Shown here: positions 22,479-25,400 of the stretch, one piece after another
Layout of the letters: every line of letters starts with the position of its first letter
Numbering within the stretch: the first letter of the stretch is position 1
Assembly (NCBI GenBank): GCA_040384805.1
Contig: JAZKIP010000008.1
Location: forward strand, 36,749 to 100,748
Source of the DNA: Patescibacteria group bacterium
Lineage (GTDB): Bacteria; Patescibacteriota; Minisyncoccia; Phycocordibacterales; UBA9973
Direction: 5' to 3'
Length of the DNA stretch: 64,000 nt
Position numbers and translations under genes: made by a program
Notes under the pieces: model-generated
What the model was told of the DNA's origin: nothing
Seen by the model: only the letters and a program-made list of their open reading frames with translations
The model's database searches: none

Positions 22479-25400
22479 CGCGCAATCGAGATTACAAATG
22501 ATAATTCGTCAATCTTTATTCCGCTTCCTTGTGTTGCAACAAATTTTATATCTTTCGCGCCAACCGTATTCAGAAGTTCATCTTTGAACATATTTATCAG
22601 ATCGCTTCCTTCATCGTTTGTCTCAATAGCAAGAACAATGATCTCGCTCGGGTTTAAGCCTTCTTTCTTGCGCATGTCTTGTATCGCGCGGACGAGTTCC
22701 CGATACTGTCCTTCTTTTTTAAGTTCCGGTGTGATAGCAAGATCAAGCTCTATCTCGCCTGCAAGAGTATTATCTTTATCGATACTCTTAACATTCAACT
22801 CATCCTTCAGAATAAGAGCATAGTCTTCGCCAAGATTCCAATTTTTTACCTTAAGAGATCCGAGCGGCTGGCGTACCTTAATCCCCGCCTTCTGTCTCGC
22901 TTCAAGTCCCATAGTGACTAGACTTCTGGCGCTTTCCATATCTGAGAGAATGTGCTCATCAACGTCATTGTCGGCAGGCCAGGAAGACAGATGGACGCTT
23001 TCCGTATCGGTCTCGTTCTTTAATTTCTGCCATATATCTTCAGCAGCAAAGGGAGCAAACGGGGCCATGAGAGTAGAGACTTTTTTAAGAACATAATAGA
23101 GAGTCTTCTTGGCATCAGCATCGCCTTCCTTAAGGCGCTCGCGGGAACGGCGAACATACCATGTTGAAAGATCGTCAATGAATGAGCGTAAAGCGCGAAC
23201 AGGCTCGAGCAGCTTATAAGAGTCGAGAGATTCTGTCATGCTTTGTGCCAGCTGATTGACACGCGAGACAATCCACTGATCCAGAATATTATTCAACGAA
23301 TCATATGATTCTTTTTCAAGCGCCGTATCTCTATATAAATCGTAGAATGCCAGAACATTATAGAGCAAGTTGAAGACTTTGTTGTTGAGTTCGGCGACCG
23401 TCTTCTCATCGAAGTTCTTCGACTCCCCCGGCTGGTTGACCGAATACATCCACAGACGAAGAGTATCGACGCCGTACTTTTCCATCATGAGCCACGGATC
23501 GACGATGTTGCCGAGAGATTTCGACATCTTCTTTCCCTTCTCGTCGAGAATGTGGCCGAGACAGATGACATTCTTGTATGCCTTGCCGCGGCCCGTGAGA
23601 ATACCGACTGCATGAAGAGTATAGAACCATCCGCGCGTCTGATCGATCGCCTCCGATATATAGTCAGCTGGGAATCCTTTTGTATCTACCCATTCTTCAT
23701 TCTCGAACGGATAGTGATCCTGCGCGAACGGCATGACGCCTGAATCGAACCAGACATCCATCACCTCTTTCACTCTTTTCATCGAATCGCCTTTTTCATC
23801 GACAAGCTCTATCGAATCTATATACGGCTTGTGAAAATCAAGTTCATAGTCTTCGTTATGCGGAACAGGGACAAACGGCAGTTCCCGGACTTCTCCGTTG
23901 CTGAACCGCTTGAAATCTGAAACAAATACCTGTGTGCCTGCCACTTGATACTCCTTATTTTCAGGAGTGAATAATCCTGCGTTGACAAAAAGGAGCCATG
24001 CCGGACCGCCATGCGTAATGATCAGTATATTCCTACCTTTATATTTTTCTTCGAGTTCATAGAGAAGCTCTGCCGTTCTTTTCTTTACATCCTCAAGAGA
24101 CTCTCCGCCTCCGATCTTCTCCTTGAACCAATCAGGGCCTCCGTTGGAATGAACATATTGATGATACGCGGTCCAACTTTTCCCATCGAATTCTCCCGGA
24201 TCAACTTCTTTGAGACGGTCGTCGAACACAATAGAGTCTTTGGGCATGCCGAGCGTTTCAATAACCAGATCGGCGGTTTCGCGCGTGCGCGTGAAAGGAG
24301 AAGCGATGATGAGATCGATATTCTTGCCGATAAGTTCTTGTTTCACTCTTTGAATAACATCCTCTTTCCCTGCGGGAGTCAGTCCATCAGTTTCCTGATG
24401 GACGTAGCTTACGAGTTCCTTGAGATTGCCTCCTGTTCCTCCATGGCGCATGACGAAATACTTGTTGCCCGATGTTTTTGTTTTCTTCTTCAGTTCCTCG
24501 AGACTTCCGACAACATCAAACGTTCCATCGGTCTTCTGCCAAATAGGAAGCGGGGTGCCCCAGTAGCGCTCGCGGGAGATCGCCCAGTCTTTGATATCCT
24601 TGAGCCACTCGCCGAAACGGCCATCACGGATGTACGATGGTTCCCAATTGATCTCTTTATTCTCTGCGATCATTTTCTCCTTAATCTTCCCGTCGGACAT
24701 GCGGATATACCACGAATCGCGCGCGTAATAGATAAGCGGGGTCTTGCAGCGCCAGCAATGCGGATATGAGTGCTCGTACTTTTCCTTCTTGAACAGAAGT
24801 CCCCGATGAGCGAGATCCTTGATAATATCAACTGCAACCTCTTCGTCTTTGACGAACCGGCCTTCAAGAAATTCGGTGCCCAAGATAAAGTGTCCCGTAT
24901 CATCGACAGTATGCAATTTCGGAAGTCCGATTTTCGTGCCAAGCTCGAAGTCGTCCTGTCCGTACATGATAGCCGTATGGACGACTCCCGTGCCGTCGGT
25001 TGTGGTAACGAAATCCGCGGGATAGACAGTGAAAGCTTTCTCTGTCGATTCTCTCTTTTTCTCCAATGCATCTTTAAGATACGGATAGAGAGGTTCATAT
25101 CGAAGTCCTATTAAATCTTTGCCGGATAAAGATTCAACGCTATATCCATCCGCTCCTTCTTGCAGTGAGAAATTCTTAACTAGCAAGTCCTTCGCAACGA
25201 TATATGTTTCCGAAGAATCTTTCATCTTCACTTTTACATATTCAATATCACTCCCTACCGCAAGGGCAACGTTGCCCGGCAGTGTCCATGGCGTCGTCGT
25301 CCACGCTAAGATATATGTGTTCTCCTGTCCCACGACTTTAAACTTGGCATATACTGAAAGATCCTTCACATCTTCATACCCTTGGGCAAGCTCGTGCGAT

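Follow-up and report, generated by a model that had tools for sequence, protein, structure and literature searches.

Why should an isoleucyl-tRNA synthetase (IleRS) carry a second enzyme domain inside its own core, and what might that domain do there? The question is posed by the ileS gene at 22475..25972, on the minus strand of a 64,000-nucleotide stretch of a Patescibacteria genome that we refer to as the window; all features of ileS given below lie on the same strand. An earlier note on this DNA, made from the sequence alone, had pointed to the region 23758-24547 of the gene (aa 476-739 of the 1165-aa product, between WAISRERYWGTPLP and DVWFDSG) as holding a histidine phosphatase of the phosphoglycerate mutase-like (PGAM-like) superfamily. 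By bringing together profile searches, structure prediction and a comparison with 169 full-length phosphatase-bearing homologs, from which the conservation counts in this text are taken, we confirm that the module is a complete branch-1 histidine phosphatase and find that the standard form of IleRS in a large Paceibacteria clade is a phosphatase-bearing one. We hold with moderate confidence that the domain is an ancient, vertically inherited and active phosphomonoesterase on a small, possibly nucleotide-like, substrate.

The inserted module matches Pfam His_Phos_1 (PF00300) over aa 506-666 (23975..24457) with an E-value of 2.2e-25 and a bit score of 89.9 (gathering score 21.7), and the whole catalytic core of the family is in place, that is, the RHG histidine, two arginines, the second histidine and an acidic donor. 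Conservation is complete (100%) for R509 and H510 of the RHG motif (24443..24448), of which H510 is the predicted phospho-acceptor nucleophile, for S558, for R562, the second phosphate-pocket arginine in SPFTRTRETA (24287..24289), and for H654, the second catalytic histidine in ITHGG (24011..24013); it reaches 98% for T566 and E589, 96% for G511, E624 and R632, and 92% for N516. The general acid is likely E589 (24206..24208, the Glu of RLKEV in RLKEVDPGEF), because it follows R562 by 27 residues and is matched, in the alignment with PhoE, by the Glu of the RLRE motif. The earlier note was thus right that all core motifs of the superfamily are embedded in-frame in a genuine IleRS, and its assignments of RHG, R562 and H654 stand, but the acid that it placed in GGGES has to be moved to E589, GGGES..R (E624, R632) being a separate conserved family motif.

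Predicted structure points in the same direction as sequence. Foldseek aligns the domain to many family structures of the alpha/beta fold with probability 1.00 and E-values from 3e-12 to 1e-9, the best being PspA (4IJ5/4IJ6, E 3e-12), the mycobacterial hydrolases 6S2Q, the riboflavin-pathway phosphatase 9MMH, Rv2419c (4QIH), PhoE (1H2E) and CobC, while true mutases rank below phosphatases as structural neighbors. By sequence, the nearest solved proteins are PhoE (1EBB/1H2E, E 1e-7), the phosphoserine phosphatase PspA, and CobC. Among the NCBIfam equivalogs, those for dPGM are not reached (dPGM_arch, 50 bits against a cut-off of 225; GpmB, 31 against 261; PRK01295, 23.5 against 316), nor are those for CobC (TIGR03162, 72.3 against 162.9; PRK15004, 42.3 against 250), and the score for the PspA equivalog falls far under its cut-off. 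"PGAM-like" therefore holds at the level of the superfamily but no further, and in sequence and fold the domain resembles small-substrate phosphatases such as PhoE, PspA and CobC rather than phosphoglycerate mutase. Since identity to these phosphatases does not go beyond 22-25% and all equivalog models score below their cut-offs, a substrate is not assignable by homology.

The domain shares its fold and its catalytic set (RHG, second Arg, Glu, HG) with PhoE/YhfR (1EBB, 1H2E), PspA (4IJ5), CobC (6E4B, 6NRU), Rv2419c (4QIH) and HFP (9MMH). The spacing from H510 to H654, 138-145 residues across the homologs, is that of PhoE, which we infer to imply the cap region and small-substrate pocket of PhoE/PspA/CobC-type enzymes. 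Unlike those free-standing proteins of ~200 aa, from which it has diverged to the identity given above, the IleRS domain has both of its termini spliced into the core of another enzyme. It is acidic to neutral, with a median pI of 5.8 as against 8.7 for the anticodon-binding domain; nucleic-acid binding by charge was considered and rejected, the domain not being basic.

The host of this module is, for its part, in full order. The ileS product scores 903 bits against the NCBIfam equivalog TIGR00392 (cut-off 621.4), and Pfam finds in it tRNA-synt_1 in two pieces (best 19-501), His_Phos_1, Anticodon_1 and the type-2 C-terminal domain DUF5915 (PF19302, aa 1046-1164). Both class I signatures are present, the HIGH motif in its GXHH form as PGIHH (aa 55-59) and KMSKS (aa 815-819), together with the CP1 editing motifs WTTTPWT, GTGxVHxA and DD. 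Phosphatase-bearing homologs retain them as well: GIHH is found in 121, KMSKS in 149 of the 169 and WTTTPWT in 167, and the first zinc site and GTGxVHxA are likewise kept. The C-terminal organization, which lacks a C-terminal zinc-binding domain, is that of type 2, and the fold is IleRS2-like, Foldseek scores to the IleRS1 structures 8C9E and 1QU2 being below those to IleRS2. Compared with P. megaterium IleRS2 (8C8U/V/W), T. thermophilus IleRS (1ILE) and the yeast enzyme (8WND), the protein has the same overall fold at 33-37% identity (target-normalized TM-scores of the full-length model 0.81 for 8C8V, 0.92 for 1ILE and 0.81 for 8WND), with the CP1 editing domain, first zinc site, KMSKS and type-2 C-terminal domains in common with solved IleRS2. 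We take it to be the housekeeping, editing-competent type-2 IleRS of a Paceibacteria genome (Parcubacteria, within the candidate phyla radiation (CPR), or Patescibacteria). To judge from its motifs, from the conservation of its gene order and from the candidate AUC specifier in a T-box-like leader, it probably charges tRNA(Ile) with isoleucine.

As to the HIGH motif itself, the GXHH variant is documented only in IleRS2, where it has been linked to mupirocin hyper-resistance (PMC10485003). The window IleRS has GIHH, a swap of the [A/G]XHH type, at aa 56-59 (25796-25807). Of the phosphatase-bearing homologs, ~132 have [G/A]xHH and ~30 the canonical HxGH, the remainder having other forms, so that the insert spans both HIGH motif classes.

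Where the phosphatase enters this scaffold can be stated to the residue. In a phmmer comparison with PDB sequences, aa 9-496 align with residues 7-476 of P. megaterium IleRS2 and aa 704 onward with residue 479 onward; 207 aa of the window protein (aa 497-703, 23864..24484) thus take the place of 2 residues. In the P. megaterium enzyme these flanks together make up a Cys4 zinc knuckle, of which WECEGC...KELQK is one half and ...LTCPVCSGEMKR the other. The knuckle is a hairpin of the connective peptide, with WxISRxRYWG on one side and the DVWFDSG strand on the other. Its N-terminal arm corresponds to aa 477-496 of the window protein (IWQKTDGTFDVVGSLEELKK, 24485..24544, aligned to WECEGCQHQVAPKSIKELQK), which has lost the CxxC ligands, and its C-terminal arm to aa 704-738 (PHNEDYELDFHKPYIDSIELVDEKGDSMKRVKEVM, 23759..23863), which has lost the CxC ligands, leads into the DVWFDSG strand and contains H714, P716 and D719, each 99-100% conserved. 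The alignment thus places the phosphatase in the tip of the hairpin that forms the second zinc knuckle, and not in the knuckle's stead; the earlier note had located the phosphatase in the right segment, but had it occupying the place of a short zinc-knuckle insertion that in fact persists on either side of it. An AlphaFold2 model built from a 108-sequence alignment has a mean pLDDT of 92.8 and a pTM of 0.86 for the whole protein, and the insert modeled alone has a pLDDT of 88.9. Low confidence is confined to a loop at ~aa 670-690; after it, a last beta-strand (aa 695-698) returns the chain to the knuckle, just ahead of its C-terminal arm. Insert length varies little among the homologs (188-216 aa, median 200).

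That connective-peptide loops of class Ia synthetases tolerate nested domains is known, the CP1 editing domain being an example (PMC11685878). The NCBIfam family ileS_w_GNAT (NF040702) further shows that an IleRS can host an extra catalytic domain, although the chemistry of GNAT differs from that of a phosphatase and the window IleRS, at 341 bits against a cut-off of 1999, is not a member. We found no solved or described IleRS with a phosphatase insert of the present kind.

The fate of the zinc site bears on whether the insert is there for catalysis at all. All four ligands of the second knuckle are lost in the window IleRS, while among the homologs exactly two cysteines per arm are found in 69 and none in 87. 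Because the cysteines are largely either all present or all absent, the pattern suggests that zinc binding was lost repeatedly or clade-wise after the phosphatase had been inserted. One could then picture the domain as non-catalytic, either a structural stand-in for the knuckle or a sensor of a phosphometabolite that tunes IleRS allosterically; the 87 homologs devoid of ligands suggest that the insert can stabilize the hairpin, and the high pTM suggests rigid packing. The 69 homologs in which two cysteines per arm persist beside a phosphatase argue against the insert as a mere replacement of the knuckle, and retention of E589 (98%) along with both histidines (100%) goes beyond what binding would need. 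A role without catalysis is in our estimation unlikely.

Could the architecture instead be an artifact, that is, an assembly chimera, a frameshifted fusion, an intein or a mobile insertion? Nothing speaks for this beyond the initial caution due to a single open reading frame (ORF) in a metagenome-assembled genome. The best 120 full-length matches all contain both PF00133 and PF00300, at 62-75% identity and 1126-1270 aa, on contigs of up to 808 kb, and they include a 2015 Nomurabacteria genome present in UniRef; the exact window protein is itself already in NCBI as a "class I tRNA ligase family protein" (P0058) of a Patescibacteria metagenome-assembled genome, on a contig of 209,578 bp. A junction-spanning segment searched exhaustively against 1.84 billion cluster representatives gave 123 matches at E<1e-30, and most of the best 150 representatives at 50% identity hold the whole junction segment in one stretch; more than 100 separate clusters at that identity carry the insert. 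In GTDB species genomes at least 553 candidate stretches were confirmed as relatives, and all 80 of the 80 species loci inspected span the junction, one of them being cut by a contig end. As hundreds of independent assemblies, drawn from several sources, show this in-frame architecture, misassembly, which the earlier note had already thought improbable, is excluded. GC content shows no break across the insert, which co-diverges with its host, and an intein or mobile element was rejected, the insert having no intein-type junction residues and a histidine-phosphatase rather than a HINT fold. We consider the chance of an artifact negligible.

Rather than a one-off, the insertion is a clade-wide trait, in fact already annotated as PF00300 in public databases. 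Its carriers all come from Paceibacteria/Parcubacteria, and their loci are labeled Paceibacteria, Minisyncoccia, Parcubacteria, Nomura-, Zambryski-, Campbell- and Vogelbacteria. Among 265 sequences that show both flanking motifs, the spacing between the motifs is strictly bimodal: 61 sequences have 40-99 aa and 204 have 220-299 aa. The insert is absent, by this measure, from the canonical IleRS sequences examined. Distances within the insert and within the IleRS core co-vary (r 0.65; Mantel 0 of 300). The simplest reading of these patterns is a single ancient insertion followed by vertical descent.

Two features of the database entries deserve mention here. Many C-terminal halves of IleRS (~700-760 aa) start at one conserved Met located 43 aa before the junction segment. 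A split gene was considered and rejected: in the one case inspected (P0191/L083), the start lies 110 nt from a contig end, IleRS homology continues upstream, and the frame is disturbed within the first 10 nt (L083 1-120). Such short entries look like the product of recurrent contig breakage in a highly conserved stretch combined with Met-start gene calling. In addition, many records labeled "MAG TPA_asm: uncultured Candidatus Saccharibacteria" (among L004-L072) have an IleRS and synteny of the Paceibacteria type, as have entries labeled "Nitrospira sp." (L063) and "Burkholderiales" (protein P0128), suggesting that these labels are generic or wrong, or that the contigs were mis-binned.

How, then, has the insert evolved since its acquisition? 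Its mean pairwise identity (0.42) is close to that of the IleRS C-terminal domain (0.41) and below that of the catalytic core (0.65-0.70), and among homologs the identity within the insert can fall to ~20-30% even as the catalytic residues are held. The insert thus evolves like the peripheral domains of IleRS, and both the phosphatase and the synthetase appear to be under purifying selection. These observations underlie the mechanism that we favor, in which a free-standing phosphatase gene of the PhoE/PspA/CobC type would have entered the 2-residue tip of the second zinc knuckle in the ancestor of the clade and would have been inherited vertically ever since. In the present-day enzyme, R509, R562 and H654 would hold a terminal phosphoryl group for attack by H510, with E589 protonating the leaving group, and the resulting phospho-histidine would then be hydrolyzed. 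The activity that we infer is, in short, phosphomonoester hydrolysis by way of phospho-H510.

For the substrate we commit to a small phosphorylated metabolite, roughly of the size of a nucleotide or sugar phosphate, and neither Ap4A nor a protein, because the R509-to-H654 spacing and the cap region are PhoE-like and the nearest structures are all small-molecule phosphatases. That the domain is complete, confidently folded in prediction and intact in its catalytic residues, while the synthetic and editing motifs of the host are kept as well, supports the reading as an active phosphomonoesterase. Several considerations weigh against it. A non-hydrolytic sensor of a phosphate ligand would also keep an invariant pocket; a purely metabolic enzyme might be expected more often at a terminus, and with sporadic loss; and the strict retention within the core, along with a sub-lineage that has gained a second phosphatase, hints at a link to IleRS function. 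Coupling to tRNA charging, perhaps through its AMP or pyrophosphate products or through the tRNA 3' end, is possible.

A protein substrate has to be weighed at the same point. The histidine-phosphatase superfamily includes some enzymes that act on proteins, and class I aminoacyl-tRNA synthetases (aaRS) are known targets of inactivating toxin kinases. A domain of the SixA/Sts/PGAM5 type could thus undo the phosphorylation by which, for instance, HipA-like toxin kinases would inhibit IleRS or another translation factor. The nearest relatives in sequence and structure are, however, small-molecule enzymes with a cap region and not SixA-like minimal domains, and the insert has no match among PADLOC defense families; we judge such a role quite improbable.

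The sub-lineage with a second phosphatase and one further variant show that these synthetases can be elaborated beyond a single insert. In P0283 (L082 1932-6191, 1419 aa) and P0315 the IleRS holds two intact His_Phos_1 domains, the first at the usual site and the second (aa 871-1061) between the KMSKS region and the anticodon-binding domain. The second domain shares ~31% identity with the first, and 36-39% with the embedded phosphatases of other species. P0318 (L081 5238-9425, 1395 aa) combines the phosphatase with a P-loop kinase-like insert located after DVWFDSG (aa 746-869), which has the Walker A sequence GACGAGKT and matches AAA_18/AAA_33 at E 1.7e-6. The search for relatives of this P-loop insert returned no other IleRS and a single stand-alone protein of 168 aa at 39% identity; as a singleton, the kinase variant offers weak evidence.

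These variants enter into the explanation that ties the phosphatase most directly to aminoacylation, in which it would clear a 2'- or 3'-phosphate, a 2',3'-cyclic phosphate or a 3'-pyrophosphate from the CCA end of tRNA(Ile), or act on a nucleotide product in the synthetic site. In either case a new function of proofreading or repair would be part of an aaRS. We regard this as a tentative possibility. It gains from the position of the domain in the catalytic core beside the amino-acid-pocket strand DVWFDSG, from its invariant retention, from its restriction to IleRS among the aaRS of the window (the 480-aa MetRS and the class II aaRS have no comparable extra domain), and from the second histidine-phosphatase domain of some IleRS, while the pairing of P-loop kinase and phosphatase in P0318 recalls the kinase-phosphatase enzymes of end healing. 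There is also a precedent for joining a CobC-like histidine phosphatase to a nucleic-acid enzyme, namely the RNase H/acid phosphatase of the Rv2228c/RnhC type (NF005567). This is the second-best NCBIfam phosphatase match of the insert, but at 68.5 bits it falls far under the cut-off of 326, and in that family the fusion is terminal and the partner RNase H, whereas here it is nested and the partner an aaRS. Against an action on RNA ends stand the low pI of the domain relative to that of the anticodon-binding domain, the small-metabolite nature of all its nearest structural relatives, the solitary occurrence of the kinase variant and the lack of an obvious reason why tRNA(Ile) alone should need repair. 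We know of no histidine-phosphatase family member that acts on RNA ends.

Does the genomic neighborhood reveal a partner for the phosphatase? The earlier note had proposed that the domain, together with adjacent NUDIX, HAD and MBL hydrolases, forms a sanitizing module that destroys Ap4A, ApnN or other aberrant nucleotides made by IleRS. The 4-bp overlap of ileS with a NUDIX gene on which it drew is real in the window, and the region is rich in genes of nucleotide metabolism (three NUDIX, dUTPase, dTMP kinase and HAD). When the window neighbors were searched by tblastn against the 80 related loci, RecO was matched in 75 and ArgRS in 65, followed by dUTPase (29), HAD (14), MBL (12) and the downstream NUDIX (5), while the upstream NUDIX was matched in 0. 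The conserved order is argS-ileS-recO, with recO directly after ileS in many loci, and a Nomurabacteria locus without the hydrolase cassette reads SHMT, Tmk, MazG, ArgRS, IleRS, RecO, class II aaRS and M16 peptidase. In the window, MBL, HAD and NUDIX genes (20785-22478, minus strand) sit between recO and ileS, and another NUDIX gene (26455-26940, minus strand) between ileS and argS, within an otherwise conserved block of M16 peptidase, class II aaRS, a 630-aa protein, recO, ileS, argS, dut, tmk and SHMT. The NUDIX, HAD and MBL genes are lineage-specific variable cargo and therefore unusable for inferring the function of the insert, so that the proposed module loses its genomic support. Its chemistry fares no better: histidine phosphatases transfer a terminal phosphoryl group to histidine, and dinucleoside polyphosphates such as Ap4A, which have no terminal phosphate to attack, fit poorly as substrates. 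We consider the sanitizing hypothesis very improbable.

A T-box-like leader precedes ileS at 26034..26209. It has the core AAGGUGGUACCACGGGG and a short Stem I, in the region of which AUC is a candidate Ile specifier, and it is followed by an intrinsic terminator read directly from the sequence (25997..26046; ACUCGUCC ... GGACGAG, then U7). Terminator and T-box core overlap as expected for an antiterminator switch. The leader scores 35.9 bits against RF00230, E 2e-6 locally, below the gathering score of 93, largely because its Stem I is ~47 nt shorter than that of the model; the Rfam scan of the window accordingly gave nothing at the gathering threshold, and the T-box was seen in E-value mode only. 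The same model gives 46.2 bits and 35.1 bits for the leaders of two relatives (L001 and L023), and of 73 related loci, 30 have the exact 12-nt core no more than 600 nt upstream of ileS, as against 17 of 400 control windows in which up to 2 mismatches were allowed. From these sequence elements the leader appears T-box-like and, given its candidate specifier, probably Ile-specific. A literature search that combined T-box riboswitch and CPR terms listed no paper with the T-box term.

Elsewhere in the window, a few genes stand out in their own right. A 614-aa ORF (7837-9681, minus strand) matches Pfam APP_N, the amyloid A4 N-terminal heparin-binding domain, over aa 182-268 (E 1.2e-10; bit score 42, gathering score 22.1), which is unexpected for a bacterial protein. 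The 630-aa ORF adjoining recO (17845-19737, minus strand) has no Pfam or NCBIfam family, but its position is conserved, being taken in L084 by a gene for 643 aa; no family was found for a 338-aa ORF at 170-1186 (plus strand) either. The downstream NUDIX weakly matches PADLOC as the candidate system PDC-S07 (E 1.2e-8).

Few enzymes have been studied as thoroughly as the aaRS, of which IleRS is a target of antibiotics. As the earlier note had surmised, no aaRS with an embedded PGAM-type phosphatase seems to have been described: we found no account of an IleRS or other aaRS joined to a histidine phosphatase or PGAM domain, or of such fusions in CPR, in the searchable papers, which cover few subscription journals and in which absence is not proof. 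A phosphatase is mentioned nowhere in recent papers on IleRS evolution, among them a 2026 survey that covers 96,219 sequences and annotates their domains. Since the architecture is visible in automated database annotation, it is not new as sequence but appears to be new as a described biological feature. What the feature amounts to is a second, fully conserved catalytic center of an unrelated superfamily, inside the core of IleRS and kept across a major branch of CPR. If the phosphatase were coupled to aminoacylation, an outcome to which we give a small but real chance, it would be a third and previously undescribed catalytic activity of an aaRS, unblocking the 3' end of tRNA(Ile) (from a 3'-phosphate, a cyclic phosphate or a toxin-added pyrophosphate) or clearing the synthetic site of a nucleotide product or an inhibitor, with the second-phosphatase and kinase variants as elaborations, and quality control or repair of a new kind would then be associated with a synthetase. 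If it is instead an independent metabolic phosphatase, it would offer a clean natural example of the nesting and entrenchment of a domain in minimal genomes, and also a warning for metabolic reconstructions of Patescibacteria, in which an IleRS may be miscounted as a "phosphoglycerate mutase family" gene.

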